From a bacterium (GTDB lineage Bacteria; Joyebacterota; Joyebacteria; Joyebacterales; Joyebacteraceae), in assembly GCA_025782395.1 (NCBI GenBank), contig JALGZD010000218.1, forward strand, positions 87,556 to 151,555: a DNA stretch of 64,000 nt, given 5' to 3'. Below the pieces are notes generated by a model. That model was not told the origin of the DNA and searched no databases. It was given only the letters and a program-made list of their open reading frames with translations. Of this stretch, positions 1 to 28,438 are shown one piece after another (the first letter of the stretch is position 1; every line of letters starts with the position of its first letter). The position numbers and the translations under genes were made by a program.

Positions 1-618
1 GAGACTGCCCGGACCTGCTCCCACCATGGCAACTCTCTTCCCGGTCGGGGGCGCGACGGGGGGTGAGAACGGTTCCGGGTGCTCGATGTCCCAGTCGGCG
101 GCGAACCGCTTGAGGAAATCAATGCAGACCGGTCCCTCCATAGCGTTCCTGCGGCACTCTTCCTCACAAGGCCTGGTGCAGACGCGGCCGATCGACAGAG
201 GAAACGGGTTCACTTCCTTGACGAGTGCCGTCGCCTCACGGTACTTCTTTTTCGCAATGAGAGCGATGTATCCCTGGACGTCGACACTCGCCGGGCACGC
301 CGCCTGACACGGCGCGATGCAGTCGCCCCGGTGATTCGACATGAGGAGCTCGAGCGCCATACGCCGTACCGCACGCACGTCCTCAGTGTTCGTCCATATC
401 TTCATCCCCTCCGCCACCCGCGTTCCACACGAGGGCACATACCGCTTCACGCCTTCCAGCTTGACTGCGCAGACCCAGCAGGATGTGAAGGGCTCGAGCT
501 GCTCGTCATGGCATAGTGTCGGTATCTCGATCCCGTTCCGCCTCGCGGCCTCAAGGATCGTGATACCGTGCTCGACCTGTACTTCCTTCCCGTCAAGGGA
601 GACAGTTACCAGTGCCAC
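1..618 (-). CDS. 5' part of a gene (continues beyond the left window edge) for a protein with a NuoG-like N-terminal ferredoxin domain followed by a GltD/NfnB-like NAD(P)H-binding domain
   Basis: The minus-strand frame is open from position 1 to a GTG at 616-618 with an AGAGGGAAC ribosome-binding site. Translation: VALVTVSLDGKEVQVEHGITILEAARRNGIEIPTLCHDEQLEPFTSCWVC (2Fe-2S fold); HRGDCIAPCQAACP (His-ligated 4Fe-4S of NuoG type); GKRVAMVGAGPGS (Rossmann start). It is absent from the ORF track because the gene is truncated by the window edge. Confidence 0.5.
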   Translation of the reverse strand, partial: MALVTVSLDGKEVQVEHGITILEAARRNGIEIPTLCHDEQLEPFTSCWVCAVKLEGVKRYVPSCGTRVAEGMKIWTNTEDVRAVRRMALELLMSNHRGDCIAPCQAACPASVDVQGYIALIAKKKYREATALVKEVNPFPLSIGRVCTRPCEEECRRNAMEGPVCIDFLKRFAADWDIEHPEPFSPPVAPPTGKRVAMVGAGPGSL

Positions 619-667
619 CTTGTTCCCTCTCTGATTCAGCCTCGGTCTCAAAGCCTGTTGATTCGAG

Positions 668-2455
668 CTAGCGAACGATGATCGCGTCGAACTTGCACAC
701 CTGCCTGCACGCGTCGCACTTCGTGCAGAGATCCTGGTCTATGACGTGCGGTTTCTTCTTCTCGCCGCTCACCGCGCCGACCGGGCACGCCTTGGCGCAC
801 AGCGTACAGCCTACGCAGTTCTCTGCAACGACTTCGTAGGTCAGAAGCGCCTTGCACGCGAGCGCCGGACAGCGCTTCTCGTGAATGTGCGCTTCGTACT
901 CGTTTCTGAAGTGCTTGATCGTGGTGAGGACGGGGTTCGGTGCGGTCTGCCCAAGCCCGCAGAGCGACGAGCTCACTACTTTCTCACCCAGCTCCTGCAG
1001 GAGTTCGATATCGCCCTCGCGTCCCTCTCCGGCACAGATGCGCTCAAGGATCTCCAGCATCCGCTTGGTGCCTACTCGACAGAACGTGCACTTGCCGCAG
1101 CTCTCATTCTGGGTGAAGTCGAGGAAGAACCGCGCGATGTCCACCATGCACGTCGAATCGTCCATGACAACCATGCCACCCGAGCCCATGATCGCGCCCG
1201 TTTTCGTCACGGATTCATAGTCGACCTTGACGTCGATGAGCTCCTCCGGAATGCAGCCACCGGACGGTCCCCCGAGCTGAACGGCCTTGAACTTCCGCCC
1301 CTCCGGCACACCGCCCCCGATTTCGAAGATGATGTCTCTCAAGCGAATGCCCATCGGGACTTCAACGAGTCCGCCGCGGACGATCTTCCCGGCAAGTGCA
1401 AACACTTTCGTTCCCTTGCTGGTCTCCGTGCCGTGGCTCGCGTACGCCGCGGCTCCATTCGTGATGATCCACGCGATGTTCGCGTACGTTTCGACGTTGT
1501 TGATGTTGGTCGGCTTCCCCCAGAGCCCCTCGACAGCAGGATACGGCGGCCGCAGCTTCGGCATGCCTCTCTTGCCCTCTATGGATGCGATGAGGGCCGT
1601 CTCCTCCCCGCAGACGAAAGCTCCGGCGCCTTCCTTGATCTTGACCGTGAAGCCGAACCCGGATCCCAGAATGTCGCTTCCAAGGAATCCCCGCTCCGTA
1701 GCATCGGCAATGGCTATGTTGAGGCGCTTGATGGCGAGAGGGTACTCCGCGCGAACGTAGAAATAGCCCTCCTTGGCTCCGATCGCATATGCCGCGATCA
1801 TGAGCCCTTCGAGAACCGAATGGGGATCGCCCTCAAGAATGCTCCGATCCATGAAGGCGCCGGGATCTCCCTCGTCGGCGTTGACTATGACGTACTTGAC
1901 CTCTCCCGGCTGCTGCCTGGCCAGACCCCACTTCACGCCGGTCGGGAAGCCGGCTCCGCCGCGCCCCCTCAGACCGGAGTCCTTGACTACCGAGATGACT
2001 TCATCGGGCGACATGGATTTGAGTGCCGTTGCGAGGGCGTCGTAGCCGCCGGCATCCATGTAGTCATCGATCGACTCGGGATCGATTAGACCTGCGTTCC
2101 TGAGGACTATCCGCTCCTGTGGCGCCAGGTAGGCATCGTCCGGAAGCTCCCGACCGTCGGCGTGGATCAGCCACTCTTCGATCGGTTTTCCGCCCACCAC
2201 GTGTTCAGCAATGATGCGTTCGACGCGTTCCGTGGTGACGCCGCCGTACGTCATCTTCCCCAACCCGGGAACCGCTACATCCACGAGCGGTTCTCTGTAG
2301 CACATCCCGACACACCCTGTACGTTTGAGCTCGACGTCGATTCCCTGGTCCTGGAGCTTCTGCCGGAAGGTCTCATACACGTCCCGAGCCCCGGCGGCAA
2401 TCCCGCAGCTCGAAAGACCGACCGTTATCTCAGCAACCACGCCCGAAGTATCCAT
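668..2455 (-). CDS. NuoF-like NADH-binding flavoprotein subunit with N-terminal thioredoxin-like 2Fe-2S domain and C-terminal 2x[4Fe-4S] (HndC/HydB/StnC-like)
   Basis: 595 aa. FMN/NADH motifs GRGGAGFPTGVKW. C-terminal CxxCxxCxxxCP x2. N-terminal CGIAAGARDV...CVGMC ferredoxin-like. Confidence 0.8.
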   Translation of the reverse strand: MDTSGVVAEITVGLSSCGIAAGARDVYETFRQKLQDQGIDVELKRTGCVGMCYREPLVDVAVPGLGKMTYGGVTTERVERIIAEHVVGGKPIEEWLIHADGRELPDDAYLAPQERIVLRNAGLIDPESIDDYMDAGGYDALATALKSMSPDEVISVVKDSGLRGRGGAGFPTGVKWGLARQQPGEVKYVIVNADEGDPGAFMDRSILEGDPHSVLEGLMIAAYAIGAKEGYFYVRAEYPLAIKRLNIAIADATERGFLGSDILGSGFGFTVKIKEGAGAFVCGEETALIASIEGKRGMPKLRPPYPAVEGLWGKPTNINNVETYANIAWIITNGAAAYASHGTETSKGTKVFALAGKIVRGGLVEVPMGIRLRDIIFEIGGGVPEGRKFKAVQLGGPSGGCIPEELIDVKVDYESVTKTGAIMGSGGMVVMDDSTCMVDIARFFLDFTQNESCGKCTFCRVGTKRMLEILERICAGEGREGDIELLQELGEKVVSSSLCGLGQTAPNPVLTTIKHFRNEYEAHIHEKRCPALACKALLTYEVVAENCVGCTLCAKACPVGAVSGEKKKPHVIDQDLCTKCDACRQVCKFDAIIVR

Positions 2456-2550
2456 CTTGTCCCTCTCCGGACACCCCTTAACAGGGTGTTCCGCAATGCG
2501 TCCGCCCTGATTGCCCGTTCAGCCGTGCGCCATCGACCCCCGCCCTGGCC

Positions 2551-3087
2551 TTACTTCCCGTACTCCCGGACAATCTTCCGCGCCTCGGCGGGTGTCAGGC
2601 GACCGTATGTGTCGTCCGCGATCATGATCACGGGGGCAAGGCTGCAACAACCGATGCACGCCACGGAGTCGACGGTGAACATCCCGTCCTCGGTGGTACC
2701 TCCGTCCTCAATACCAAGTTCATCGCAGATGGCGTCGCCGATCGCGACCGCCCCCTGCACGTGGCAGGCCGTGCCGTGACAGACCTTCACAATGTATTTC
2801 CCGACAGGATTGAATCTGAACTGCGAGTAGAAACTGGCGACGCCGTAGACGCGTGCTGGAGGCACATCCAGCGAGTGTCCGATTCTCTGAATCACCTCAA
2901 CCGGCAGGTAGCCGATTCTGGCCTGAACCTGCTGCAACACGGGGATCACGCTCCCCGGCGCGTCCACATACTTCCCGGCTATCTCATCGACGATAGCCAG
3001 GTACTCTTTCATTGTCTCCGCCTGAACAACCGCCTTCTCCATCGTTCCTCCGAGTGATCCGGTGGCTCCGTCCCTTGCGAACACCAC
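2551..3087 (-). CDS. NuoE-like 2Fe-2S thioredoxin-fold subunit (HndA/HydC-like)
   Basis: 178 aa. CHGTACHVQGA...CIGCCSLAPV cysteine pattern typical of NuoE/24 kDa subunit. Abuts ndk (3087/3088). Confidence 0.8.
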   Translation of the reverse strand: MVFARDGATGSLGGTMEKAVVQAETMKEYLAIVDEIAGKYVDAPGSVIPVLQQVQARIGYLPVEVIQRIGHSLDVPPARVYGVASFYSQFRFNPVGKYIVKVCHGTACHVQGAVAIGDAICDELGIEDGGTTEDGMFTVDSVACIGCCSLAPVIMIADDTYGRLTPAEARKIVREYGK

Positions 3088-3510
3088 CTACCCAGCGAGT
3101 GTGCGAGGACAGTCGCCGAAGTAGAAGGCTGATTCATGTTTCACGCGCTCAGGCGCGTCGGAAGCATGCACTCCGTTCTCCGTCATGCTCTTGCCGTACT
3201 TGCCCCTGATGCTGCCGGGCGCAGCCTTAGCCGGGTCGGTGGCTCCGATGAACGCTCGGAGTGCCGTCACCGCATCAGGCGCTTCCAGCATGACCCCGAC
3301 CGTCATTCCCGATGTGACGAACTCAATGAGGGTCCCAAAGAACGGTTTGCCCACGTGCACATCGTAGAACACGTGAGCTTCTTCGACCGACAGTTTTCGT
3401 GATGCGAGGCCGACGATGCGGAAGCCCCCCCGCTCGAGCGCAGCCAGAATCTCTCCCGTGAGACCATCACGGACGGCCCGCGGTTTCACCATGAGGAAGG
3501 TTCTGTCCAT
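3088..3510 (-). CDS. ndk: nucleoside diphosphate kinase
   Basis: MDRTFLMVKPRAV...NGVHASD (active-site His region). The listed ORF's first 40 aa are a spurious extension overlapping korC; the true start is the internal ATG at about 3510. Confidence 0.85.
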   Translation of the reverse strand: MDRTFLMVKPRAVRDGLTGEILAALERGGFRIVGLASRKLSVEEAHVFYDVHVGKPFFGTLIEFVTSGMTVGVMLEAPDAVTALRAFIGATDPAKAAPGSIRGKYGKSMTENGVHASDAPERVKHESAFYFGDCPRTLAG

Positions 3511-4070
3511 CAGCTCACCTTTCCCGTCGCGCGCCTGGCGGCTTCCCGTCCGACAGCCAGCGCTCTCTTGTTCGCCTCCTCGGTTCCGCTCGGTACACGC
3601 GCCACCACGGTCTTCTCGAGGCTGTCCCACTCCACGGCTTTCGAGAGCTCAACAACTGCGCCGAGTGCAACCACGTTGGCGAACAGTGCTCTTCCGCACT
3701 GTTCGATGGCGAGAAGCGTGAACGGGATCCCGATAGCGGAGTCCAGCCCGGCATTGTCCACGAGGTACGAATCCACGACGAAGAGCCCACCCTCTTTGAG
3801 AGAACGCCTGTATTCATCCGCGGATACCTGGGTCATGGCGAGAAGCACATCGACGCTGGTCGCCTTTGGATAGTCGATATCCTCGGTCGAGATGACGATA
3901 TCGGTCTTGCTCTTACCGCCTCTTGCCTCGGGACCGTAGCTTTGCGTTTGCACCGTGTTCTTGCCGTCGTAGACGGACGCCGCCTCCGCAAGGAGCTTGC
4001 CGGCCAGCATCAGCCCCTGACCGCCCGAGCCTGAAAGGCGAATCTCGAATCTGCCTTCATCTTTCGTCAC
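3510..4070 (-). CDS. korC: 2-oxoacid:ferredoxin oxidoreductase gamma subunit
   Basis: 186 aa. RLSGSGGQGLMLAGKLLAEAA matches the Por/Kor gamma family signature. Confidence 0.75.
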   Translation of the reverse strand: MTKDEGRFEIRLSGSGGQGLMLAGKLLAEAASVYDGKNTVQTQSYGPEARGGKSKTDIVISTEDIDYPKATSVDVLLAMTQVSADEYRRSLKEGGLFVVDSYLVDNAGLDSAIGIPFTLLAIEQCGRALFANVVALGAVVELSKAVEWDSLEKTVVARVPSGTEEANKRALAVGREAARRATGKVS

Positions 4071-4132
4071 TTGCGAATCCTCGCGTTGGTGTCGCCGCGC
4101 TCAGGCGGTGACCGTTCCTCGAGATACACCGG

Positions 4133-5041
4133 CTACTCGATCCTCGCCTTGAGCCTGTTCCCAAGCCGTTGGTAGCTCTCGATCGTCGCCCTGAGGTTCT
4201 GGTTGACAACCGAGGAGTCCGTGGTCAGCTCTTCAGCGAGCTTGTCATAGACCTCGATAAATTCGGGCTGATCTCTCTCGACATGAACGCCGCGGATGAA
4301 CTTCCCCTTGAGCTGCTCGGGAGACATATCGGCGGCCTGCTTCACGGTGACCGCGCTCTCCTTCATCCACTTGAACATGTCGACCGGACCGGAGAACTTG
4401 TTGAGTCTGCCGTAGCTCGTGTAGCAGTTGCTGACGACCTCAACGACGGAGAACCCCGGGTGTCGGATGGCACGCTCAAGGATCTTGTCCAGCTCGCGCA
4501 CGTGGTAGACCGACGTGCGGGCAACGAATGTCGCCCCGGCTCCAGCCGCGAGGGAGACGATATCGAATTCGTACTCAACGTTGCCGTAGGGAGCGGTCGT
4601 TCCTCGCTTGCCGTGAGGCGTCGTGGGCGAGTACTGCCCGCCCGTCATCCCGTAGATGCAGTTGTTCGCCACGATGGCGGTTATATCGATGTTGCGCCGG
4701 CAGGCGTGGATGAAGTGGTTGCCTCCGATCGCCACAGCATCCCCGTCACCCATTGCTGTGACGACCGTAAGCTCGGGATTGGCGAGCTTAACGCCCGTGG
4801 CGAATCCGAGCGCTCTGCCGTGTGTCGTATGCAGCGTATTGGTATCGATGTAGGTAGGAAGCCGTCCGGTGCACCCAATACCCGAGATCGTCGCCGTCTT
4901 GTTCTTCTCGAGCCCCATCCCGGACATCACCCTCGTGAGGCTGCCCATAATGATCCCGAGACCGCATCCCGCACACCAAACGGTCGGAAGTTTCTTGTGA
5001 GGCTTGAGATAGGTCCTCGCGCGTTCTATGGCCTGGCTCAT
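4133..5041 (-). CDS. korB: 2-oxoacid:ferredoxin oxidoreductase beta subunit (TPP-binding)
   Basis: 302 aa. CAGCGLGIIMGS...GDGD TPP-binding motifs. Overlaps the alpha subunit by 4 bp. Confidence 0.85.
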   Translation of the reverse strand: MSQAIERARTYLKPHKKLPTVWCAGCGLGIIMGSLTRVMSGMGLEKNKTATISGIGCTGRLPTYIDTNTLHTTHGRALGFATGVKLANPELTVVTAMGDGDAVAIGGNHFIHACRRNIDITAIVANNCIYGMTGGQYSPTTPHGKRGTTAPYGNVEYEFDIVSLAAGAGATFVARTSVYHVRELDKILERAIRHPGFSVVEVVSNCYTSYGRLNKFSGPVDMFKWMKESAVTVKQAADMSPEQLKGKFIRGVHVERDQPEFIEVYDKLAEELTTDSSVVNQNLRATIESYQRLGNRLKARIE

Positions 5042-6210
5042 GACGCTATCTCCTCCAGAACGAAGTCAGTGATCTGATCGGGCTCAAACAAGTGCCCGTC
5101 GACCCGCCCGAAGTGCCGGACCGGAACAACACCGGCCACCGCACGCTCCACTTCTGTTACAAGCTGTCCCAGGTTCATTTCAGGAACGATGATACTGCGA
5201 AGTTGGGGAGCCAGCTCCCTGAGCCTCTTGCCCGAGAACGGCCAGATGGTCTTCACGCGCAGGAGCCCGGCCTTCAGACCGCGTTCCCTCAGAACCCTCA
5301 GCGACGCTTTCGCGACACGCGCCGAGGACCCGTACGCGAAGAGCAGCACCTCGCAGTCGTCCGTCATTGTTTCCTCGTTCATGGCCAGATCGTCCGCTCT
5401 GTCCTCGATCTTGCCCACGATCCCGCGGATCTTCCTGTCCACCTCCTCCGGCACCATTGTCGGGAAGCCGCGCTCGTCGTGAGTGAGGCCTGTCACGTGG
5501 AAGCGATGCGGCCCACCGAAGTGAGCCATCGGAGGAATGCCACTGAGTCCGCCGCAGAACGGCTGGTAGTCCTCCTGCTCGTCGCGCGGGTGCGGCCGCG
5601 AATGCACTTTGTACGACCCCGGAGCCGGAACCTCAACGCTCTCACGCATGTGACCGATCACTTCGTCCATAAGAAGCACGACGGGCGTGCGGAACTCCTC
5701 GGACAGACTCACGCAGCGTGCCGTGAGCTCGATGCACTCGAGAACAGTCGCCGGCGCCAGCGCGATGATAGCATGGTCGCCGTGCGTTCCCCAGCGCGTC
5801 TGCATGACGTCCCCCTGGGCCGGCTGCGTCGGTAGCCCGGTTGAGGGACCGGCACGCTGGACGTTTACGATGACACAAGGGATTTCAGCGAGACAGGCTA
5901 ATCCCAAGTTCTCCTGCATGAGCGAGAAACCCGGTCCGCTTGTGGCGGTCATCGATCTCGCGCCGGCCAGCGACGCACCGATTATGGCTGCTATCGAGCC
6001 GATCTCATCTTCCATCTGGATGAAGCGCCCGCCGATCAGTGGAAGATGTCTTGCCATGAACTCTGCGATTTCGGACGATGGAGTAATGGGATAGCCGGCG
6101 AAGAAATCGACACCGGCGGCGACAGCTCCCACAGAGCAGGCTTCGTTCCCCTGCATCACCCAGATCGACCTTTCGTTGTTCCCTGACATGATTGATGAAC
6201 CCCCGGACAC
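5038..6210 (-). CDS. korA: 2-oxoacid:ferredoxin oxidoreductase alpha subunit
   Basis: 390 aa. Typical KorA/PorA pyrimidine-binding domain: GNEACSVGAVAAGVDFFAGYPITPSSEI. Confidence 0.85.
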   Translation of the reverse strand: MSGGSSIMSGNNERSIWVMQGNEACSVGAVAAGVDFFAGYPITPSSEIAEFMARHLPLIGGRFIQMEDEIGSIAAIIGASLAGARSMTATSGPGFSLMQENLGLACLAEIPCVIVNVQRAGPSTGLPTQPAQGDVMQTRWGTHGDHAIIALAPATVLECIELTARCVSLSEEFRTPVVLLMDEVIGHMRESVEVPAPGSYKVHSRPHPRDEQEDYQPFCGGLSGIPPMAHFGGPHRFHVTGLTHDERGFPTMVPEEVDRKIRGIVGKIEDRADDLAMNEETMTDDCEVLLFAYGSSARVAKASLRVLRERGLKAGLLRVKTIWPFSGKRLRELAPQLRSIIVPEMNLGQLVTEVERAVAGVVPVRHFGRVDGHLFEPDQITDFVLEEIAS

Positions 6211-6232
6211 TGTAGTCCGTTAGCCGGCCTCG

Positions 6233-6523
6233 TTAGGAACCGTTCTTCTTCGCACGCTCTTTGTAGATCGTGATCGCCATATCGGGGCAGAGCATCTCGC
6301 AGAGATTGCAGGCAATGCACTTCTCCGGATGCTCCACGACCGGACGACCGGTCTTGTCCGCCCCGAAGACCTTTGTGGGGCAGAACTCGATGCAGATACC
6401 ACAGGCCTTGCACCAGGCCTGGTAGACAAAGACATCCTGATCCGGGTGCTCTTCACGCGACGGGTAGTTCCATCGCCTGTTGTTCGCGGCCTTGGCCGCC
6501 TGCTTCTCCATGCTACCTCCCAA
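6233..6523 (-). CDS. korD: 2-oxoacid:ferredoxin oxidoreductase delta subunit (2x[4Fe-4S] ferredoxin)
   Basis: 96 aa. [12 protein letters not shown] and [12 protein letters not shown]. Overlaps the sucD stop by 11 bp. Confidence 0.75.
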
Positions 6524-7385
6524 GCGCGGTCTTCAGAAGACCGGGTATCTCACTCGGACGGTCGGCCACGGGCACGCCCGCCGCCGCCAGCGCTTCCATC
6601 TTCTCCTGAGCCGTCCCCTTGCCACCCGCGATGATGGCCCCGGCATGCCCCATCCTCTTTCCTGGGGGAGCAGTTCTGCCGGCGATGAAGCTCACGACCG
6701 GCTTCGTCATCTTCGCCTTGATGAACTCCGCTGCCTGCTCTTCGTCCGTCCCGCCGATCTCCCCTATCAGCACGACGGCTTCTGTCTCCTGGTCATTCTC
6801 GAACGCTTCCAGCGTGTCGATGAAGCTCGTTCCGATTATCGGATCACCACCGATCCCGATAACGCTCGACTGACCCATCCCGTCGCGACGCAGACAGTCC
6901 ACTACCTCGTAGGTCAGCGTTCCGCTTCTCGAGACGACACCTATGCCGCCCTGGGAGTGAATGAAGCCGGGCATGATGCCCAGCTTCGATTTCCCGGGGC
7001 TGATGATACCGGGACAGTTCGGTCCGATCATGCGAACACCGAGCTCCTTCGTCCGCTTGTAGATCTTCGCCACATCGAGAGTGGGCACACCCTCGGAAAC
7101 AACGACAACGAGCTTAGCACCCGACTCGACCGCCTCCATCGCAGCACCTGCGGCGAACTTCGCGGGGACGAAGATGATGGTTGCATTGGCTCCCGTCGCG
7201 TCGACGGCCTCACGCACGGTATTGAAGACAGGGATCCCGTCTATCTCCTGTCCACCCTTCCCTGGTGTGACGCCCGCCACGACAGCGGTTCCGTACTCCA
7301 CCATGGCGCGGGTGTGGAACGAGCCGTCGCGGCCGGTGATTCCCTGGACGCAGACTCGTGTGGTTTCATCCAGAAAGATACTCAC
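6513..7385 (-). CDS. sucD: succinyl-CoA synthetase alpha subunit
   Basis: 290 aa. Canonical SucD N-terminus and CoA-binding/His-phosphorylation region (GHAGAII). Confidence 0.9.
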
Positions 7386-8520
7386 GCCTGCCTCCTCGCC
7401 AGCTCGACCGCCTTCTCGACCGCTTCATCCATCGTCTCCGCGGATTCCATCTCGTGCTCAGCCAGGATTCGCCCGGCCTCTTCCGCGTTCGTCCCCGTCA
7501 GGCGGACAACGAGCGGCAGCCCCACGGGCTGCTCCTCGAGCGCAGCCACGAGTCCCCTGGCAACGTCGTCACAGCGGGTGATTCCCCCAAAGATGTTGAG
7601 GAGGATCGACTTGACGTTCGGGTCACCCGTAATGATGTCGATGGCGGTCTGCATTTTCTCCGGGCTCGAGCTTCCTCCGATGTCGAGGAAGTTAGCGGGC
7701 TCACCACCGTAGTACTTGATGACATCCATAGTGGTCATGGCCAGGCCTGCCCCGTTTACGATGCAGCCAACGTCGCCCTCAAGCTTGATGTATGAGAGAC
7801 CCATCTCTCGCGCCCGCCTCAGTTCATCGGTCTCACTGGATGGGTCGCGCATGGCCTCAATGTCGGGATGGCGGAATAGTGCGTTGTCGTCGATGTTGAT
7901 CTTCGCATCGACCGCCCAGACCTGCTCGTCCGGTGTAACGACCAGCGGGTTTATCTCCGCAAGCGAGGCATCGCTTCCGATGAAAGCCTCATACAGTTTC
8001 TCAACAACGACTGCGATGTCACGAGCCACATGAGGTCTCGCATCGAGCTTCCCTGCAAGCTCTTGCGCGTCGGCTTCAGAGAGCCCGTCCTCGGGATCGA
8101 CCGGATGTTTGTGGATTCTCTCGGGCGTCGTCGCTGCAACCTCCTCGATGTCCACTCCGCCGGCGGCGCTCACCATATAGACCGGCCTCTTGGTCGCGCG
8201 GTCGACGACGATTCCGGCGTAGTACTCGCGATCGATATCGACGGCGTCCGCGACCATGACTCTCTCGACCGTGAGGCCCTTGATGTCCATCCCCAGTATG
8301 GCCGATGCGTGCGCCTCCGCCTCGCGGGGAGTCTGCGCCAGCTTGACGCCGCCGGCCTTACCGCGACCGCCGACGTGCACCTGAGCTTTGACGACGACCA
8401 TACTGCCGATCTTCTCGGCAACACGGCGCGCGTCCCTGGAATCGTCCACGACCTCAAAACGAGGAATCGGGACCCCATACCCGCTCAGAATCTCTCTGGC
8501 CTGGTACTCATGGATCTTCA
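7382..8520 (-). CDS. sucC: succinyl-CoA synthetase beta subunit (ATP-grasp)
   Basis: [12 protein letters not shown]... is the canonical SucC start. The likely start is TTG at 8518-8520 with a GGGGGG ribosome-binding site; the upstream part of the listed ORF (to 8563) is probably non-coding. 4-bp overlap with sucD. Confidence 0.9.
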
Positions 8521-8593
8521 AGTAGTCCCCCCATGGTTGCTGCGGTTCCGGAGATCCGTCCACCCCGGCGTACCGGGCGCGAGCGGCCCGATA

Positions 8594-9904
8594 TCACAGG
8601 AACTTCTTCAGAACATCAACGAGCGTCGGACTACCCTTCACGTCAAGATCGTACCCGACGCGCACGCTCGGTTTCTCTATTGTGATGACCCTCCTGAGAT
8701 CGATCGGCGTCCCCACAACGACGTAATCGCAATCGACCGCGTTCACCGTCTTCTCCAGGTCCGCCACCTGCTCACCACTGTAGCCGGCCGCGGGCAGGAG
8801 CGCTCCTATGCCCGGGTACTTCTCGTACATCTCTTTGATTTTGCCAACTGCCTTGTCGCGCGCGTCAACAAGGATCGCACCGGCACGCTCGGCAGCCACA
8901 GTGCCGGCCCCGATCGTCATGCCGCCGTGAGTCAGTGTGGGACCATCCTCGATAACCAGTACGCGCTTGCCCCTGAGATCGACGTCCTCTTCGAAGACTA
9001 CGGGCGAGTCGGCGTGCATAATCAGAGCTTCCGGGTTCACCGACTCGATATTGCCGACGAGCCGATCTATCTCCGCCTGCTCCGCGGAGTCTTCCTTGTT
9101 GATAATGACGACATCGGCCATCCGGAGGTTCTGCTCTCCGGGGTAGTACGTGAGTTCGTGACCGACGCGATGCGGATCGGCAACCACGATGTAGAGATCG
9201 GCATCGTAGAAGGACGCGTCGTTGTTACCACCGTCCCACAGGACGATGTCCGCCTCCTTTTCAGCCTCTTCCAGGATGCGTCCGTAGTCGACTCCTGCGA
9301 AGACGACGTTTCCACGGTCGATATGAGGCTCGTACTCCTCCATCTCCTCGATTGTGCACTTGTGCTTCGCCATGTCGTCGTAGCTGCCGAACCTCTGCCA
9401 GATCTGCTTCGTCAGATCGCCGTACGGCATCGGATGTCTGATGGCGACGACCTTCTTCCCGGCCTCGGTCAGGATTTCCGCAACGCGTCGCGTCGTCTGG
9501 CTTTTTCCACACCCCGTCCGGGTCGCACAGATGGCGATCACCGGCTTCCCGGAGTTGAGCATCGTCTCGCGCGCACCGAGGAGCACAAAGTTGGCTCCCA
9601 GGGCGTTCACCTGGGACGCCTTGTGCATCACATACTCGTGCGGCACGTCGCTGTACGCGAAGACGACATCATCGACGTTGAGTTCCTCGATCAGGCGTGG
9701 CAGTTCCTCCTCCGCGCGAATCGGGATGCCGTCGGGGTAGAGCCTGCCGGCGAGTTCCGTAGGATATGCTCGACCATCTATGTCGGGAATCTGAGTCGCC
9801 GTGAACGCTACGACCTCAAACTCTTCGCGGTCACGATAGACCAGATTGAAATTATGGAAATCCCTACCCGCCGCCCCCATGATAATGACACGTCTTTTCT
9901 CCAT
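8594..9904 (-). CDS. P-loop protein of the COG2403 / cyclic 2,3-diphosphoglycerate synthetase-like family
   Basis: About 436 aa from the internal Met MEKRRVIIMG. Walker-A-like TRTGCGKSQT. Family assignment is from recall, not a search. Confidence 0.35.
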   Translation of the reverse strand: MEKRRVIIMGAAGRDFHNFNLVYRDREEFEVVAFTATQIPDIDGRAYPTELAGRLYPDGIPIRAEEELPRLIEELNVDDVVFAYSDVPHEYVMHKASQVNALGANFVLLGARETMLNSGKPVIAICATRTGCGKSQTTRRVAEILTEAGKKVVAIRHPMPYGDLTKQIWQRFGSYDDMAKHKCTIEEMEEYEPHIDRGNVVFAGVDYGRILEEAEKEADIVLWDGGNNDASFYDADLYIVVADPHRVGHELTYYPGEQNLRMADVVIINKEDSAEQAEIDRLVGNIESVNPEALIMHADSPVVFEEDVDLRGKRVLVIEDGPTLTHGGMTIGAGTVAAERAGAILVDARDKAVGKIKEMYEKYPGIGALLPAAGYSGEQVADLEKTVNAVDCDYVVVGTPIDLRRVITIEKPSVRVGYDLDVKGSPTLVDVLKKFL

Positions 9905-10165
9905 CACACCTCTCCTTGACTCCCCGACACACTGCTGTCGCGTCACCTTGAGGCCGCGACGCACCCGGCCAATCGCAGATGAATCCCCCATGTACCCGCA
10001 TTCACCCGAAGACGGTCACTTGGAGGATCCCAAACATCATATGGACCGTGCGGATGTCGTTCCACCGGTCCGCCGACAGCCAGGAGTGCGACTGCCGAAC
10101 AACCATATAAGTTTACTCTATTTGCAGAAGATAGTCCAGCAGCCAATGGTGCGTTCACGCCTTTT

Positions 10166-11831: not shown

Positions 11832-12689
11832 TTAGGTGAGTTTCACCCTCTCGATCGTGCGTCTCCGCCTCGGCTTCCTCTTGGGATGCTCGGGAACGAT
11901 GAGGTCCGGATACGCGTTATGAAGAGCCTGGATCGACGAACCGGAGAAGCATCCGGTCAGCATACCGCCGAGTCCGTACTCCCTGAAGAGGTGATAGGTG
12001 ACGTCCTGGAAAACACGCTCCGGCGGCACGCCGAGCATGTCCTCAACCAGCCACCTGGTGGCCCGCCGCGCGTTTTCGAGTCCCTTCTCACCCTGCCAGA
12101 AGTTCTTCGGAACGTTTCTGAACTCCCAGGGATAGAAACGGCCCGGATAGGCGTTCTCGATAGCGCGGAAGAAAGAACCACGGAAGCAGACTGACAGCAT
12201 ACCCCTCAGGTTGTACTTCCCGAAGGTCGTCGCTGAGATCCGCTGCGGGATCTCGCCTACTGCGCAGCCCTCCCTCTCCTCGATCATCCAGCGGGTAGCC
12301 TCCGCCGCCAGCTTGAAGCGCTCAGGACCTTGCCACATACCCTTGACATTGAACTGCCATTTGTGGAATCGGCCGGGATATGCGTTGTCGATCACCTTGT
12401 ACGGCGACCAGTCGAAGCAGCTCCCCAGCATCCACGTCAAGCCGTTCTCGTAGAACAACTTCTTGTGAATGGCGCGCGGTATCTCGTCGACGCCGATGCC
12501 AAGCTTCTCCTCGAGGAGGTGGCGTGTGATGATACCGGCTCTGGCACGGCCGACCGCCCCCTCAAAGAAGTTATTCGGGAAACGCCTCCGCTGCTTGAGA
12601 GAGACGTCCTCGTAGACCTGGATCACCTCGGCGCGGTCCAACTCAGGCGCCGCTACTCCGGAGTCCAGCCTTTTCAGCTCCGCAACCAT
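11832..12689 (-). CDS. hypothetical protein with three ~85-aa internal repeats and an Arg/Lys-rich tail
   Basis: 285 aa. Repeat core ATRW..E...G......P......F...GL.GML..CF.GS...A..NAYPG.F..W.F. C-terminus PKRKPRRRRTIERVKLT. Good GGAGGAG ribosome-binding site before the ATG. Confidence 0.55.
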   Translation of the reverse strand: MVAELKRLDSGVAAPELDRAEVIQVYEDVSLKQRRRFPNNFFEGAVGRARAGIITRHLLEEKLGIGVDEIPRAIHKKLFYENGLTWMLGSCFDWSPYKVIDNAYPGRFHKWQFNVKGMWQGPERFKLAAEATRWMIEEREGCAVGEIPQRISATTFGKYNLRGMLSVCFRGSFFRAIENAYPGRFYPWEFRNVPKNFWQGEKGLENARRATRWLVEDMLGVPPERVFQDVTYHLFREYGLGGMLTGCFSGSSIQALHNAYPDLIVPEHPKRKPRRRRTIERVKLT

Positions 12690-13173
12690 AGCTCCTCCAC
12701 TCTACAGTTCGGACAACTGTCAAAGCTGTCGAATGCCATCGCAGGATGCTCGTTGCCCACCAACACAGATTCCGCCACGTGTCATCTATCCGTATCTACA
12801 ATATCACCCCGCGCAAAACCTGTCAAGAGAAATGTTCGCCAAAGCTTACACTGACAAGGTTTCCCTTTTGACGGGCACGACGACCGGCATGTCCTCCTTC
12901 ATCGTCGACGCCCCTGCATCGCCACTCACGCCGTTGCGACGTGCGACGTCCGCCCGCCCCATGCTGTGGTGGAACGAAAGACGGAAGCTGGATCCCGAGT
13001 CCAGGCATCCGTACGGACGCACTCGAACCCGGCTTCTCCGACTCGCCGTTCGCTCGACGTGCGCTCTGGACAGGCTCAGCCGCATGACAAGCACCCCCCG
13101 ATCATCCACGCGATCGAGTACCCCACCGTACCCATGTGGCACGGTGATTGCTAGCGCGCGCCCCAGAAAGCGC

Positions 13174-13202
13174 TTGACATGCCATCAGTTCGCTCCTATC
13201 TT
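13174..13202 (+). promoter_or_regulatory. sigma-70-like promoter candidate (TTGACA-17-TATCTT) for the DUF3467 gene
   Basis: TTGACA at 13174-13179, 17-nt spacer, TATCTT at 13197-13202. A GGAGAGG ribosome-binding site at about 13247 precedes the TTG start at 13262. Confidence 0.35.
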
Positions 13203-13261
13203 GACGCAAAATCCGAACTGATGCGCTGTGAAGTTGCACGGCAGGCGGAGAGGCTTAGCTA

Positions 13262-13552
13262 TTGGCAGAGCAGAAGAAGATCAACATAGAACTGAGGGAC
13301 GAGGAGGCCGAGGGCGTCTATGCGAACTTCGCGGTGATCACCCATTCTCCAGCGGAGTTCGTCGTCGACTTCATCAGGATCCTCCCCGGCACGAAGAAAA
13401 GCCGGGTACATGCGCGAATCGTGATGGCGCCTCAGAATATCAAGGCGTTCGCTCACGCTCTGGCCGGCAATGTCAGCAAGTATGAAGAGAAGCACGGAGA
13501 GATCAAATCCGTCTCGAATGGACAGCAGGACAAGCAGATCGGGTTCCAGTAG
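13262..13552 (+). CDS. DUF3467 family protein
   Basis: 96 aa. INIELRDEEAEGVYANFAVITHSPAEFVVDFIRILPG matches the conserved DUF3467 core as I recall it. TTG start. Confidence 0.6.
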   Translation: MAEQKKINIELRDEEAEGVYANFAVITHSPAEFVVDFIRILPGTKKSRVHARIVMAPQNIKAFAHALAGNVSKYEEKHGEIKSVSNGQQDKQIGFQ

Positions 13553-13791
13553 GTTTCGAACGAAGACGATACGAAGGAGGTTAAGGAGAGAGGCTTGTTG
13601 GGTTGCCGACCGGTCCAGGGAACCGGTCGCAGGTTGCTGGGAATGAGTCTTTCTACGGTGCACTGGGGAGCATCTGACGTCCCCGCGAATCCGGAGGGAG
13701 GTGCAAGCACGAAGAGAACGAGGCTGGTCTGACCAATGAAGTTCCTCTGGCAGGGTGGTAATCGATTTCTTCAAGTTCTAGGGGGTTAAGA

Positions 13792-14646
13792 ATGAGACGC
13801 AGTATTCTTTCAGTAGCAGTCATCGTGTTTGTCGTGGGGCTGGCCTGCACGGCCGGCGCTTATGACTTCCTCTACTTCAATGACTCACCGATGACACATG
13901 ATGCCGGCACGTTCGGCGTCAGCGCAGGCTTCGTTTACTTCTCGCAGAACGGTTGGTATGACAACGATGGCGAGAAGGTCGACTTCGAGGGTGACATGGC
14001 CGGAACCGAGATGTATGCCCCGGTCGACATCTACTACAGCATCATGGACCAGCTCGAGATCGGCATCAAGCCCGCTTTCCAGATGAACACCTGGACGGAC
14101 CTTGACGGTGACGAATTCGATTCGAACGGCATCATGGACACATGGATCGACGCCAAGTACATGATCATGATGGACCCGATGGTCACGGCTCGCGCCGGCC
14201 TCAAGGTTGCGACAGGCGACGACGAGGGTGACGAGGACAACGGTCCGACCGGTACGGGTCAGATGGACATCGACGCTGCCGTGCTCTTCGGCATGCCTGC
14301 CGGCCCGGGTCAGTTCGGCGCTCAGGTCGGCTACCGGATGGGCCTCGAGGATGACGACGGCTGCGCGCCGGGTGGAAAGATCATGTTCCTCGTGGACTAC
14401 CACTATCCGCTCAGCGACGTGATGCAGCTCAAGGTCGCGGCCGATGGCTACTTCGGCAGTGACAACACGGTCGACGGCGATGCCGTTGAGGACTCAGGCA
14501 GCAATGCTGTCGAGATCAACCCCGGCATCACCTACTCGATGGACAACGGCATGGACGTCGGCTTCGACGTCTTCTACGTCCTCATGGGCACCAACGAGGC
14601 TGCAAAGTGGGGCGCCGGCCTCTGTGTTGGTTGGGGGACGCAGTAG
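13792..14646 (+). CDS. secreted acidic beta-rich protein, possible major outer-membrane porin-like protein
   Basis: 284 aa. Signal peptide MRRSILSVAVIVFVVGLACTAGA. Asp/Gly-rich alternating pattern. Followed by a strong intrinsic terminator. Confidence 0.45.
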   Translation: MRRSILSVAVIVFVVGLACTAGAYDFLYFNDSPMTHDAGTFGVSAGFVYFSQNGWYDNDGEKVDFEGDMAGTEMYAPVDIYYSIMDQLEIGIKPAFQMNTWTDLDGDEFDSNGIMDTWIDAKYMIMMDPMVTARAGLKVATGDDEGDEDNGPTGTGQMDIDAAVLFGMPAGPGQFGAQVGYRMGLEDDDGCAPGGKIMFLVDYHYPLSDVMQLKVAADGYFGSDNTVDGDAVEDSGSNAVEINPGITYSMDNGMDVGFDVFYVLMGTNEAAKWGAGLCVGWGTQ

Positions 14647-14677
14647 CAGTCTGTTTCCGGCATACCAGGTAGTAAAG

Positions 14678-14710
14678 ACGGGGGGGCAGGTCGGCCCCCC
14701 CGTTTCTTTC
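14678..14710. terminator. bidirectional rho-independent terminator between convergent genes
   Basis: ACGGGGGGG-caggtcgg-CCCCCCCGT stem (9 bp) followed by TTTCTTTC on the plus strand. Its reverse complement is followed by TCTTTACT, downstream of the lpxL-like gene. Confidence 0.7.
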
Positions 14711-14755
14711 TGATGGTCGTCTCTCGCCGGCGCGGCTGCGCCGCTGATGCCTCGC

Positions 14756-15664
14756 CTACTCGCCCGCCGGTCGCGTCTTCCACCGCCTGTGCATCCAGAA
14801 GTACTGTTCCGGATCACTCCGTATGAACGCCTCGAACTCGCGCGTGTAGGCCTGAGTGTAGTATCGCGCGGCTTCATCCGAGTCGGTCCCGTCCGGCGGC
14901 GGCTTGATGGCCGGACAAACGACGATCTCGTGGCGACCACCCCCGCGGCCGACGACCATGCCGGGCAGAAGTGCCGCCCCTGTCGCCGCGGCCAGCCGGC
15001 CGGAACCGTAGGGAGTAGACGCCTGGCGCCCGAGGAACTCGACGAACGTGCCGCGCTTCCCGGCGTCCTGATCCGATAGCATAGCCACGACCCTGTTGCC
15101 GCGAAGCGCCCGGAAGACACCCTTGAGACTTCCGGTCAAGGGCACGATTTCCCCACCAAACCTCGCCCTCATCCTGTTCATGACACCATCTACGAGTATG
15201 TTGTGCTGCTCACCGACGAGGAATGTCATCGGATAGCCCATCAACGGCAGCGTGGCCAGGTACTCCCAGTTACCCAGGTGGCCGGCTACGAGAATCACTC
15301 CCTTCCCTTTCTCAAGCGCCCGGTCGAGATGCTCGGCGCCTGCAAGCGACACCGTGTCCTTGATCCGCCGAGGAGTCAGACGCGGGAAGCGTGCGTACTC
15401 GAATGTCATTCTGCCGAAGTTCCTGTAGGATTCTCTGCCTATGCGAACCAGCTCCTCCTCGCCCATCTCCTCCCCCAGCGCCCGCCTGAGATGGTCCATC
15501 GTGACCGCACGCCTGATACGCAGCGAGGAGAAAGCCAGACCGCCGAGAAGCGCACCTGTCTCACGAGAGAAGGCAGCCGGACTCGCACAGATGAGCGCCT
15601 GAAATGCGCGCGCAGCGCAGTACTCCATCCGATGACTCAGCGTGGTCTTTCCTCTTCGGGCCAC
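14756..15664 (-). CDS. lipid A biosynthesis lauroyl/myristoyl acyltransferase (LpxL/HtrB family)
   Basis: 302 aa. AGHLGNWE (HxxxxE acyltransferase motif). C-terminal QYFWMHRRWK typical of the family. Confidence 0.8.
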   Translation of the reverse strand: MARRGKTTLSHRMEYCAARAFQALICASPAAFSRETGALLGGLAFSSLRIRRAVTMDHLRRALGEEMGEEELVRIGRESYRNFGRMTFEYARFPRLTPRRIKDTVSLAGAEHLDRALEKGKGVILVAGHLGNWEYLATLPLMGYPMTFLVGEQHNILVDGVMNRMRARFGGEIVPLTGSLKGVFRALRGNRVVAMLSDQDAGKRGTFVEFLGRQASTPYGSGRLAAATGAALLPGMVVGRGGGRHEIVVCPAIKPPPDGTDSDEAARYYTQAYTREFEAFIRSDPEQYFWMHRRWKTRPAGE

Positions 15665-15755
15665 GAAAATCCCTCCTTAGGTGGGCGCCACGGCGGTTGT
15701 TCGGGACGGCGCTCGCACACATCCTGCTCGCTGCTGTCTCAGACCAATCCCCCGC

Positions 15756-16937
15756 TCAGGCGAATCTCCGCGCCAGCCACGAAAGCTTCACACGAACCGC
15801 CTCGTGCGGACAGACCTCGTGGCAGCAGAGGCACTCCACGCACCTCTTGCGATCGACCACGGGACCAGTCTCCGTCATCCGTATCGCACCGACGGGACAG
15901 CTGCGCACACAGAGAGCGCACGCCTCCGCCCGACAGCCCCACTCCTTCGACATCTCCGGATATACCCAGATCCATGGCTTGAGCGCGCGCATCAGAAAGC
16001 CGGGTATGTAGTTCAGTACTCCGGCTGACGGCAACACGAATCCCTCTGTATCGAACGACTCGGGAGCTTCTCCAAGAATGTCTATCCTGCGCCTGTCGGC
16101 GATGCCGAGACCCTTCTCGGCCGCTCGCCTGATCATGTAAACTCGACCGTCCTTGATCCCCATCATGCCGGCCAGAATCGTGTCGACGGCAACGGCATCG
16201 GTCCCCGCAATGATGGCACCTACAGCGCGTGGCTTTCCACCGGACGGACCATCACCCTCCATGGCGACTACGGCATCGACCACGTTCAGCGCCGGAGCAA
16301 CAAGAGCGAAGATGTCGACAAGATGATGGCTGAAAGGCCTCGGTCTCGGTGCAAGGTTGTGCATGCGCCCCTTCCCGAACCCGGGAATTGAGCCGAACAT
16401 GTTCTTGATGCACCCGGTGAACAGCGTCAGGACGTGCGTCTTCATCTTCGGGACGTTGATGACCACATCCGCGTCCAGAACGGGGCGTGTGATCATGTAC
16501 GATCTCAGTTCGCCCTCGACCGACTCCGCACCCGCTTTCTCGAAGTTCACAAGCTCGATTCCCATGCGCAGAGAGAGCTCGAGGAAACCCGTGTTCCGCC
16601 ACACGCGCTCCACACCCCTTACGGCTCCACCGGGACTGTCTCCTACCCGTGGCTCGACGCCGGCCTCGCGCGCGAGCTCGGTGAGCGCCTGGATTACTGT
16701 TGGATGTGTCGTGATGGCTCTCTCCGGGGCCTTCGCGGAAAGCATGTTGGGTTTGAGAAGGAGGGACTGCCCCCTCGTCACGAATGCCGACATGCCCCCG
16801 AGCAGGTCTACGACCTGCCTCACGGCTCCTCGTACCTCATCGAGGTCGTAGCTCTCGCACCGCGCGATCGCCACCGTTGCTCTGCCGTTCGCCTTCGCCA
16901 CCGCTATCCTGCTCTCGTATAGAAGCCTCCGGGCCAC
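15756..16937 (-). CDS. DUF362 domain protein with C-terminal 2x[4Fe-4S] ferredoxin domain
   Basis: 393 aa. N-terminal ...AIARCESYDLDEV...LLKPNM resembles DUF362. C-terminal CALCVRSCP and CVECLCCHEVCP. Confidence 0.65.
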   Translation of the reverse strand: MARRLLYESRIAVAKANGRATVAIARCESYDLDEVRGAVRQVVDLLGGMSAFVTRGQSLLLKPNMLSAKAPERAITTHPTVIQALTELAREAGVEPRVGDSPGGAVRGVERVWRNTGFLELSLRMGIELVNFEKAGAESVEGELRSYMITRPVLDADVVINVPKMKTHVLTLFTGCIKNMFGSIPGFGKGRMHNLAPRPRPFSHHLVDIFALVAPALNVVDAVVAMEGDGPSGGKPRAVGAIIAGTDAVAVDTILAGMMGIKDGRVYMIRRAAEKGLGIADRRRIDILGEAPESFDTEGFVLPSAGVLNYIPGFLMRALKPWIWVYPEMSKEWGCRAEACALCVRSCPVGAIRMTETGPVVDRKRCVECLCCHEVCPHEAVRVKLSWLARRFA

Positions 16938-19140: not shown

Positions 19141-20586
19141 CTATGCCCCGACGGCGGGTGCCCTGAGATCGTCCCACCATGGGTTGGGCCTGTCGGATAG
19201 TATTTTGTCCGGGTTCAGAAGACCGGATGGATCGAGCGCGCGCCTGACGGCCACGGTGACGCGAAGGGCCGCTTCGTCCAGCTCCTCCGCCAGGTGTTCC
19301 GCCTTGGTTATCCCGATGCCGTGTTCGCCGCTCAGGGTCCCACCCAGCTTGAGTGCTGCGCTGAAGAGCATCGATACGGCCTGCTGCGCCCGGACCATGT
19401 GTGACCGGTTGGCGCGGTCGAGCATTATGTTCACGTGGAGGTTGCCGTCGCCTGCGTGACCGAACGCCAGGATCGGCAGATTGACCTCCTCTGAAATGCG
19501 TCGCATCTCCGCGATAAACATCGGAATCCGGCTTCTCGGAACGGCAATGTCCTCGTTGATCTTGCCGGTGCCGAGCCTCGCAAGAGATGCGGAGATGGAA
19601 CGCCTGATCTCCCAGAGCTCATCCCGCTCGTTCTCATCGGATGCGGCTCTGATTCCCGTGGCCCCGCAGCTCTCAAGGATGGGCCGCAGTCTCCCCCACA
19701 TCCCGGCGAGATCGTCCGCAGCACCCTCGACTTCTATGAGAAGCGCTCCCTCCGACCTCGTGTCCGGAGCTCGGCCGCACACGTATTCGGTAGCGCAGGC
19801 AAGAGTGTCCCCGTCCATGATCTCGAGAACGCTCACCGGTACACCATCGGCCGTTATCATTGCCACGGCCGCCGCTGCATCATCGAGCGAGCCGAACTCG
19901 GCCCAGTACGTTCGCGTAACCTCGGGAGCATCGGTCAATCTCAGCGCAACGTTGGTCACCACAGCCAGCGTCCCCTCCGAACCCACGATGAGCGGGCCGG
20001 GATCCCACGCGGCACTGACGTCCGAGGCCGAGGCAAGGTAACCGGTCCGGATGATACTGCCGTCCATTGTTACCAGTTCCAGCCCCACGACGTAGTCTCC
20101 GGTAGTCCCGTAGAGCACGGTCCGGGGTCCCGCGGCACCCTCCGCTACGTTGCCGCCGATAGTGGACACCTTGAGGCTCGCCGGATCGGGAGGATACGTC
20201 AGTCCCAGGCTCTCCACGGTGTTGCGCAGGTCATCATTGACCACGCCGGGCTCGACCACGGCAACACGCGCCGTGACGTTCACGTCGGCAATACGCGTCA
20301 TCTTCTCGAACGAGAGTGCGATTCCCCCACAGATCGGAATGCTACCGCCCGTGTACCCGGTGCCCGCCCCTCTCGGGACGACAGGAAGACGTGCTCGGGA
20401 TGCTATCTTCACCACGGCCACGACATGATCCGGTGACTCAGGCCACACCACGATATCGGGAAGCCCACGGATGTCCGTTGCGTCGAAGGAGTAGCAGATC
20501 CTGTCCTCGCGTGCTGCCGAGCAGGATCCTTGAACCGCAGCCTCGATCTCCCTCTGAACAGCCTTTGTCAGGCGACTGCCTTCCAT
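19141..20586 (-). CDS. FAD-linked oxidase (GlcD / D-lactate dehydrogenase family)
   Basis: FAD-binding PCMH domain ([14 protein letters not shown]) and C-terminal FAD-oxidase domain. Probable start is MEGSRL; the first 22 aa of the listed ORF are doubtful. Confidence 0.75.
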
Positions 20587-28412: not shown

Positions 28413-28438
28413 CGGCCCCTCGCGGAAAAGCGTTACAG

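Follow-up and report, generated by a model that had tools for sequence, protein, structure and literature searches.

The minus strand at the left end of a 64,000-nucleotide stretch of contig JALGZD010000218.1 (the whole stretch is called the window) carries a run of ten genes from position 8521 down to the window start. Open reading frames (ORFs), translations, Pfam and NCBIfam identify them, in their order on that strand, as sucC, sucD, korD, korA, korB, korC, ndk, a NuoE-like gene, a NuoF-like gene and a 2Fe-2S/GltD-like gene cut by the window edge. The run combines three known systems, probably co-transcribed in an Eisenbacteria-type bacterium: succinyl-CoA synthetase (SucCD), a 2-oxoacid:ferredoxin oxidoreductase of the OorDABC type (Kor) and, behind ndk, an electron-bifurcating transhydrogenase of the StnABC/Nfn-BfuABC type (Stn). 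A probability of about 0.6 is assigned to this reading. A common function of Kor and Stn is plausible. The original prediction for this DNA had described the flavoprotein set as a possible partner of Kor and the whole run as a self-contained module. Both descriptions are inferences; the linkage is confined to one lineage, in which unrelated neighbouring genes are syntenic as well.

The assignment of the last three genes as orthologues of StnABC/Nfn-BfuABC is strongly supported by sequence comparison. Searches against all solved structures, carried out for each subunit, ranked the same complexes highest for all three predicted proteins: 9bov/9bp5, 8oh5/8oh9 (Sporomusa ovata StnABC) and 9n5u/9n5v (NfnABC). 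StnA matched best to 9n5u_C (8e-55), 8oh5_A (5e-53) and 9bov_C. StnB yielded 9bov_B (1e-268), 8oh5_B (3e-266) and 9n5u_B (4e-263) with full-length scores of 896, 888 and 878 bits, followed by NiFe/FeFe HydB at 1e-226 or weaker (at most 757 bits) and complex I NuoF at about 380 bits. StnA and the StnC fragment were ranked likewise, with Stn/NfnABC chains ahead of hydrogenase, formate dehydrogenase (FDH) and complex I subunits. StnB comprises Complex1_51K, NADH_4Fe-4S and two C-terminal Fer4 domains (Pfam), and its residues 16-96 show a weak match to a 2Fe-2S ferredoxin (NCBIfam). The cysteines 88, 93, 129 and 133 of StnA are invariant in the alignment of 41 homologues (41/41). In StnB, Cys17/48/52, Cys453/456/459/499, Cys547/550/553/557, Cys577/580/583/587 and the putative zinc ligands His523, Cys529 and Cys534 are kept in 54-58 of 58 homologues, the cluster and zinc ligands being assigned from Fe-S motifs, without structural superposition. 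The gene order NuoE-like, NuoF-like and large NuoG-N/GltD fusion occurs in the window and in 57 GltD-type loci. For each subunit the best structure matches, and for the trio the order of the genes and the domain architecture, agree with StnA-StnB-StnC, in line with the Stn/Nfn type proposed originally.

The window contains the 5' part of stnC (BfuA/NfnA). The fragment holds the N-terminal [2Fe-2S] domain, the GltD-type domain with two [4Fe-4S] clusters and the first GxGxxG motif, and matches 9bov_A (4e-66), 8oh5_C (4e-61) and 9n5u_A. An exact-sequence look-up with the NuoF-like protein gave no match by which the contig could be extended. A search for protein homologues of the fragment returned short, partial proteins only; the full architecture came from a genome scan with the NuoF-like protein (80 loci) and a metagenome scan with KorB (four further long contigs). 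The best match of the genome scan, L001, is a Candidatus Eisenbacteria metagenome-assembled genome (MAG) with 91% identity in the NuoF-like protein. The second match, L002 (77%), is a 'Candidatus Effluviviaceae' MAG, a family in the phylum Candidatus Effluviviacota according to NCBI. The third gene of L001 is 96% identical to the window fragment over the shared part and extends across an entire GltD domain as far as the end of the contig. That of L002 encodes more than 1209 amino acids (aa) and runs into an FdhA/NuoG-like region. The gene is complete in the metagenome contig L083, where it encodes 1236 aa from the same start, with 83% identity to the 206 residues in the window. Its domains are Fer2_4, Fer4_20, Pyr_redox_2, Fer4_Nqo3, Molybdop_Fe4S4 and Molybdopterin; a Pfam search of this full-length protein revealed neither Molydop_binding nor a hydrogenase domain. 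The GltD domain of the relatives consists of Fer4_20 and Pyr_redox_2 with the motif GGGNTAIDAAR...YRRSR. Pyr_redox_2 and YRRSR are complete in the orthologues of L001, L083 and L002, and the window copy stops at the edge.

A Thermovirgaceae MAG (JAXGIW010000002; L067, about 12135-15704) encodes a BfuA homologue that can be aligned without interruption to StnC of the GltD-fused type. The FDH active-site motif is nevertheless retained in it as HCAHL-TGA-H, where TGA is an in-frame codon for selenocysteine. This large subunit may be a hybrid that combines an NADPH module with a functional FDH module.

The upstream genes follow known families. SucC exceeds the cut-off of the NCBIfam equivalog NF001913 'ADP-forming succinate--CoA ligase subunit beta' (517 bits, cut-off 370), and SucD that of NF004230 (437 bits, cut-off 336). 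With both curated equivalog models passed, SucCD is predicted to be an ADP-forming succinyl-CoA synthetase. All four Kor subunit types, delta, alpha, beta and gamma, are present according to Pfam. KorA passes the generic NCBIfam model NF006412 '2-oxoacid:acceptor oxidoreductase subunit alpha' (541 bits, cut-off 411). KorB has its best match in NF007207 '2-oxoglutarate ferredoxin oxidoreductase subunit beta' (310 bits, cut-off 364), and KorD in OGOR_delta and OorD, each under cut-off. KorC matches gamma models of 2-oxoacid:ferredoxin oxidoreductases, also under their cut-offs. The 2-oxoglutarate-specific models rank best for beta and delta, second for alpha (after the generic one) and third for gamma, all under cut-offs. 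Because the best specific matches of delta and beta are OGOR/Oor models and sucCD is adjacent, Kor is most likely a four-subunit OorDABC-type enzyme with 2-oxoglutarate as substrate. The true start of korA may be the ATG at 6189, since relatives align from residue 8. Ndk stays slightly below NF001908 (153.7 bits, cut-off 155); ndk is translationally coupled to korC, and the role of Ndk here is only generic. The original identification of sucCD, the four-subunit Kor, ndk and the flavoprotein genes is confirmed.

The ten genes are joined by four overlaps and five gaps of 22-95 nucleotides (nt). sucC and sucD overlap by 4 nt (7382-7385), sucD and korD by 11 nt (6513-6523), korA and korB by 4 nt (5038-5041), and the ATG of ndk shares 1 nt with the korC stop at 3510. 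The gaps measure 22 nt between korD and korA, 62 nt between korB and korC, 45 nt between ndk and the NuoE-like gene, 95 nt between the NuoE-like and NuoF-like genes, and 49 nt before the third gene of the trio. The overlaps and the range of the gaps had been read correctly from the sequence in the original prediction, and its run of ten genes stands with a corrected origin, a TTG at 8521 in place of position 8520. Its abutment of ndk and the NuoE-like gene at 3087/3088 has to be given up. The longer ORF spans 2551-3087. GGAGGA precedes the ATG at 3042, residues 1-162 of the resulting protein align with relatives, and the orthologous ORFs of L002 and L083 have 163 aa from ATG. Most likely, translation starts at 3042, and the junction with ndk is therefore the 45-nt gap. 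The third gene starts with GTG at 618, preceded by GAGAGGGA, within a longer ORF (1-642).

A terminator or promoter between ndk and the NuoE-like gene had been named as an argument against a single operon. In this gap, as in the other intergenic ones, a consensus scan gave no site resembling a terminator or promoter; its promoter part covers sigma-70-type sites and may not suit this lineage. The folding of the six spacers was in no case better than that of shuffled sequence (z-scores -1.3 to +0.7), so that no stable hairpin is indicated. The shared strand means little, because nearly the whole window is coded on the minus strand. The operon-like feature is the overlap of start and stop codons. 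Upstream, a 465-aa minus-strand gene ends at 8594, 72 nt before sucC. As genes of the same strand continue there, the transcription unit may begin further upstream.

The ten window proteins served as tblastn queries on all loci to trace the linkage. Of the 80 genome loci, 53, from many phyla, contain the trio stnA-stnB-stnC in its GltD form. Among these genome loci, sucCD, kor and ndk lie upstream of stn only in L001 and L002, even at E = 1e-3. For other phyla, the relaxed search (E 1e-3) for a 2-oxoacid oxidoreductase, sucCD or ndk near Stn gave three weak sucD-like matches, far from stn. The ten-gene order is kept in all six long contigs (L001, L002, L082, L083, L085 and L086). The latter four were found via close KorB relatives (69-87% identity), and each one that is long enough has all ten genes. 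L087 shows the partial order korB-korC-ndk-stnA. Protein identities range from 55 to 93% across the related contigs with full or partial gene order. The Kor cluster of L089 is more distantly related (53% identity) and consists of korDABC alone. The Kor-Stn linkage looks characteristic of an Eisenbacteria-type lineage; it was found in 0 of 43 Stn loci of other phyla. Full-text searches of the literature turned up no account of a Kor-Stn cluster, nor of such a feature in Eisenbacteria.

The gene content suggests the following route. Kor would oxidize 2-oxoglutarate and reduce ferredoxin. The succinyl-CoA formed would be converted by SucCD into succinate and ATP. Stn would then use reduced ferredoxin together with NADH for the reduction of two NADP+, and the low-potential electrons of the cycle would end up as NADPH. 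All steps are reversible: with the same genes, NADPH could yield reduced ferredoxin for the reductive carboxylation of succinyl-CoA. Genes of a heterotrophic kind are present in the window, namely for urocanase, a putative imidazolonepropionase, phosphotransacetylase, a C25 peptidase and type IX secretion. Histidine breakdown leads via glutamate to 2-oxoglutarate. Since histidine and glutamate breakdown would feed 2-oxoglutarate, the oxidative direction is mildly favoured. According to the title of a 1998 report by Hughes (cited in PMC4257069), the OorDABC of Helicobacter pylori delivers its electrons to NADP. The reduction of NADP+ with ferredoxin and NADH has been shown for S. ovata StnABC and Thermococcus sibiricus NfnABC (PMC7483475, PMC10482914, PMC9304861, PMC12018979). 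A precedent for a 2-oxoacid oxidoreductase feeding a Bfu core is the proposed Por-Bfu (PMC9304861).

The third gene of the relatives ends in Molybdop_Fe4S4 and Molybdopterin, and this C-terminal half scores slightly higher against true FDH alpha subunits than against StnC/NfnA. On these grounds the trio might be a bifurcating formate dehydrogenase (Fdh-Bfu) or a hydrogenase (HydABC), a reading that is scarcely credible. A complete GltD domain is inserted in the relatives as in StnC. Where Rhodobacter-type FDH alpha subunits carry the catalytic Cys-His (Cys or Sec, and His), the alignment places Arg and Glu in L002, and the motif HCAR-x-[U/C]-H is absent from the GltD-fused proteins of L002, L083, L085 and Sporomusa L014. 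It is kept in the BfuA genes without GltD insertion across all loci, often with an in-frame TGA, including the Fdh-type loci of the same data set. Fdh-Bfu was rejected on the missing dyad and the inserted GltD domain of the relatives. HydABC was rejected on a full-length orthologue without an Fe-hydrogenase domain (Molydop_binding is missing too) and on the structure ranking, in which the window fragment aligns best with Stn/NfnABC chains. As the Cys/Sec-His dyad is absent in the relatives, their tail should make no formate dehydrogenase and can be regarded as the catalytically dead molybdopterin/FdhF-like domain typical of StnC. The earlier statement that no H-cluster or molybdopterin domain is visible holds inside the window and needs amendment beyond its edge, where the gene of the relatives carries this domain without Cys/Sec-His. 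The catalytic subunit of a hydrogenase or FDH, named at the outset as contrary evidence, is not what the relatives encode: their tail lacks the dyad, and L083 lacks a hydrogenase domain. Another proposal concerns Kor and Stn as one physical complex, a 'Kor-Nfn-Bfu' resembling the seven-subunit Por-Bfu, in which electrons of 2-oxoglutarate would reach the Bfu core without free ferredoxin and reduce NADP. The kor and stn genes do share one tight cluster, and POR subunits in an operon with BfuABC have been proposed to form a single enzyme (Schut et al., PMC9304861). Such a complex is nonetheless very unlikely. StnC has a GltD/NADPH domain of its own, so that the Bfu core already has three substrates, whereas in Por-Bfu the 2-oxoacid:ferredoxin oxidoreductase (OFOR) supplies the third. 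Likewise, BfuA of Por-Bfu has no catalytic domain of its own, and the orthologues of the window gene carry the full GltD NADPH module. The kor and stn sets are separated by ndk, Kor has its own ferredoxin domain in the delta subunit like stand-alone Oor enzymes, and additional domains for docking were not observed. With an NADPH module already present in BfuA, it is more probable that Kor is an enzyme apart and has ferredoxin in common with Stn. In a weaker form of the proposal, the cluster could serve specifically for the reductive carboxylation of succinyl-CoA in a heterotroph, with NADPH-driven bifurcation as the source of the low-potential ferredoxin needed.

Several points weigh against a Kor-Stn system that oxidizes 2-oxoglutarate. 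The generic alpha-subunit model is the only Kor model above its cut-off, and 2-oxoglutarate is only a probable substrate. No shuttle ferredoxin for the electron transfer from Kor to Stn has been identified, flux may run either way, and the restriction of the promoter scan to sigma-70-type sites may make it inapplicable here. Among 45 GltD-type Stn loci with at least 3 kb of upstream sequence, 43 have neither kor nor sucCD nearby. Upstream neighbours unrelated to the cluster are syntenic too (a DUF4046-like gene, a pfkB kinase, a cytidylyltransferase and the 465-aa gene), as are plsX and fabH, about 310 nt downstream of stnC in the relatives. The conserved order may therefore reflect shared ancestry and not selection for co-expression. 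Kor and Stn might be adjacent but independent, with Stn as a general balancer of NADH, NADPH and ferredoxin as in acetogens and its place behind kor-ndk a lineage-fixed accident. The scarcity of kor and sucCD at other Stn loci and the conserved flanking genes without relation to redox metabolism speak for this reading, and ferredoxin is a freely diffusing pool substrate, for which co-expression is unnecessary. Independence is a possibility to be reckoned with, although an improbable one. The ndk-stnA spacers are short, 45 nt in the window and about 25-75 nt in the relatives (ORF/BLAST coordinates), and free of terminator-like sites and stable hairpins. L002 and L085, with protein identities as low as 55-77%, still have the order, and the product of Kor is exactly the substrate of Stn. 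A reversed flux within the linked system appears unlikely and rather doubtful. Stn would bifurcate electrons from two NADPH to NAD+ and ferredoxin, SucCD would supply succinyl-CoA, and Kor would act as 2-oxoglutarate synthase in glutamate formation or a reductive branch of the tricarboxylic acid (TCA) cycle. [quoted passage not shown] To a slight degree, the window argues for oxidation: it shows no sign of autotrophy, its hutU/hutI, C25 peptidase and type IX secretion genes hint at a heterotroph, and histidine breakdown via glutamate to 2-oxoglutarate favours the oxidative direction. The oxidative coupling of Kor to Stn through ferredoxin is the reading preferred here.

Table 1. Genes of the cluster and further features of the window, with predicted functions.
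Feature	Position	Strand	Length	Domains and remarks
sucC, succinate-CoA ligase beta	7382-8521	-	379 aa	Pfam ATP-grasp_2, Ligase_CoA
sucD, succinate-CoA ligase alpha	6513-7385	-	290 aa	Pfam CoA_binding, Ligase_CoA
korD/oorD-like, delta	6233-6523	-	96 aa	two [4Fe-4S] motifs; Pfam Fer4 dicluster families
korA/oorA-like, alpha	5038-6210	-	390 aa from GTG	Pfam POR_N, PFOR_II
korB/oorB-like, thiamine pyrophosphate (TPP)-binding beta	4133-5041	-	302 aa	Pfam TPP_enzyme_C
korC/oorC-like, gamma	3510-4070	-	186 aa	Pfam POR
ndk, nucleoside-diphosphate kinase	3088-3510	-	140 aa	Pfam NDK, 145 bits
stnA (BfuC/NfnC, HydC/NuoE-like), [2Fe-2S] subunit	2551-3042	-	163 aa	Pfam 2Fe-2S_thioredx, 1.7e-50
stnB (BfuB/NfnB, HydB/NuoF-like)	668-2455	-	595 aa	FMN/NAD(H) and ferredoxin sites (predicted)
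stnC (BfuA/NfnA), 5' part	1-618	-	206 codons to window edge	Pfam Fer2_4, Fer4_20
465-aa gene	8594-9991	-	465 aa	weak cobW/G3E P-loop match only
DUF362 protein	15756-16937	-		C-terminal two-[4Fe-4S] ferredoxin domain
GlcD-like FAD-linked oxidase, phosphotransacetylase, urocanase, amidohydrolase	19141-21660 and 31144-34099	-		amidohydrolase read as imidazolonepropionase
Protein without family	26490-29066	-	858 aa	no Pfam match at E <= 1e-5
Protein without family	42240-45653	-	1137 aa	no Pfam match at E <= 1e-5
Type IX secretion set	48427-56762	-		includes a 1064-aa FG-GAP protein with Por_Secre_tail sorting domain
PorV homologue	51714-52697			
C25 peptidase	52731-56762		1343 aa	PorU-like (our reading)
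ORF	63023-63910		295 aa	no Pfam match
5S rRNA	63864-63980	-		complete; Rfam RF00001, 95.6 bits

The 465-aa protein upstream of sucC distantly matches cyclic 2,3-diphosphoglycerate synthetase (PDB 9sxb, E = 6e-6), at similar positions and with similar overall length. In L083, the place directly upstream of sucC is taken by an ORF of 465 aa with the same weak cobW match; at this place L001, L002 and L085 have ORFs of 435-444 aa, compared by position only. The 465-aa gene could belong to the same transcription unit as sucC. It is preceded by genes for a cytidylyltransferase-like protein and a pfkB-family kinase, possibly a split hldE by our own reading. Beyond the other end of the cluster, plsX and fabH, for the start of fatty-acid and phospholipid synthesis, follow on the same strand as stnC in L083 (18403-20434) and L085 (18317-20333). 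The position of NADPH-consuming lipid synthesis beside an NADPH-producing enzyme may be a coincidence.

The DUF362 gene lies some 7 kb upstream of the cluster. Among the window ORFs of at least 100 aa, which are partly annotated, no separate small ferredoxin was identified; shorter ORFs were not screened. The type IX secretion set is consistent with an organism of the FCB group such as Eisenbacteria. The 5S rRNA gene at the right-hand window end was the only result of the tRNA and Rfam scans of the window. The 295-aa ORF overlaps this gene and is probably not real.

Every part of the cluster is of a known kind, and no new enzyme class or mechanism is involved; only the pairing of Kor and Stn is new. 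Most work on Stn/NfnABC enzymes concerns acetogens and Thermococcus; there, the enzymes keep the pools of NADH, NADPH and ferredoxin in balance. The papers examined here, among them PMC10482914 and PMC9304861, propose a linkage of redox pools and a supply of NADPH, and name no specific partner enzyme of Stn. The location of stnABC directly behind a ferredoxin-reducing enzyme of the TCA cycle suggests a concrete, testable role for it. If this reading is correct, Stn in an uncultured phylum of the FCB group would funnel low-potential electrons of 2-oxoglutarate oxidation into NADPH, or the reverse. The cluster provides a useful annotation rule for the metabolism of Eisenbacteria and a candidate for co-expression studies.

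The closest known counterpart of the trio is S. ovata StnABC (PDB 8OH5/8OH9), a bacterial Nfn-BfuABC. StnA is a HydC/NuoE-like [2Fe-2S] subunit, and StnB a HydB/NuoF-like FMN subunit with an N-terminal thioredoxin-like domain, a zinc-stabilized linker and a C-terminal ferredoxin-like domain. StnC comprises an N-terminal [2Fe-2S] domain, a GltD domain with FAD/NADPH sites and two [4Fe-4S] clusters, and an inactive C-terminal FdhF-like domain at residues 683-1172 (PMC10482914). Gene order and three-subunit architecture are the same, including the dead FdhF-like tail as seen in the relatives, and the residues of the iron-sulfur, zinc and FMN sites are conserved in the window proteins. The locus of Sporomusa silvacetica (L014) shows 55%, 63% (StnB) and 47% identity for the three stn genes, the last over the N-terminal 214 aa. 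Unlike S. ovata, the host is an uncultured Eisenbacteria-type heterotroph, not an acetogen. Its predicted large subunit is about 60 aa longer than StnC (1236 aa in the relative vs 1172 aa). The stn genes stand directly behind sucCD-korDABC-ndk here, but neither in Sporomusa nor in 43 other Stn loci. Together with the 9BOV complex, T. sibiricus NfnABC (PDB 9N5U) is among the top-scoring solved relatives of all three subunits. Both belong to the Bfu family with its bifurcation core of FMN and iron-sulfur clusters (PMC9304861, PMC12018979). The large subunit of the archaeal NfnABC is shorter (963 aa) and has one cluster fewer (PMC9304861).

Upstream, the nearest known systems are the OorDABC enzymes of H. 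pylori and Campylobacter jejuni, which have the same four subunits in the same order, delta, alpha, beta and gamma. In C. jejuni, sucCD presumably also lies directly upstream of oorDABC. The electrons of these Oor enzymes pass via flavodoxin to a modified complex I or a flavodoxin reductase, whereas a bifurcating Stn is encoded downstream in the window. An oxidative role of Oor in the TCA cycle of Helicobacter and Campylobacter, with NADP or the respiratory chain as electron acceptor, is described in PMC4257069. Por-Bfu (BfuA-G) resembles the window in combining a multi-subunit OFOR with BfuABC in one cluster (Schut et al., 2022, PMC9304861). There, a four-subunit pyruvate OFOR would form the third-substrate module of a single proposed enzyme, while the substrate of the OFOR in the window is probably 2-oxoglutarate.

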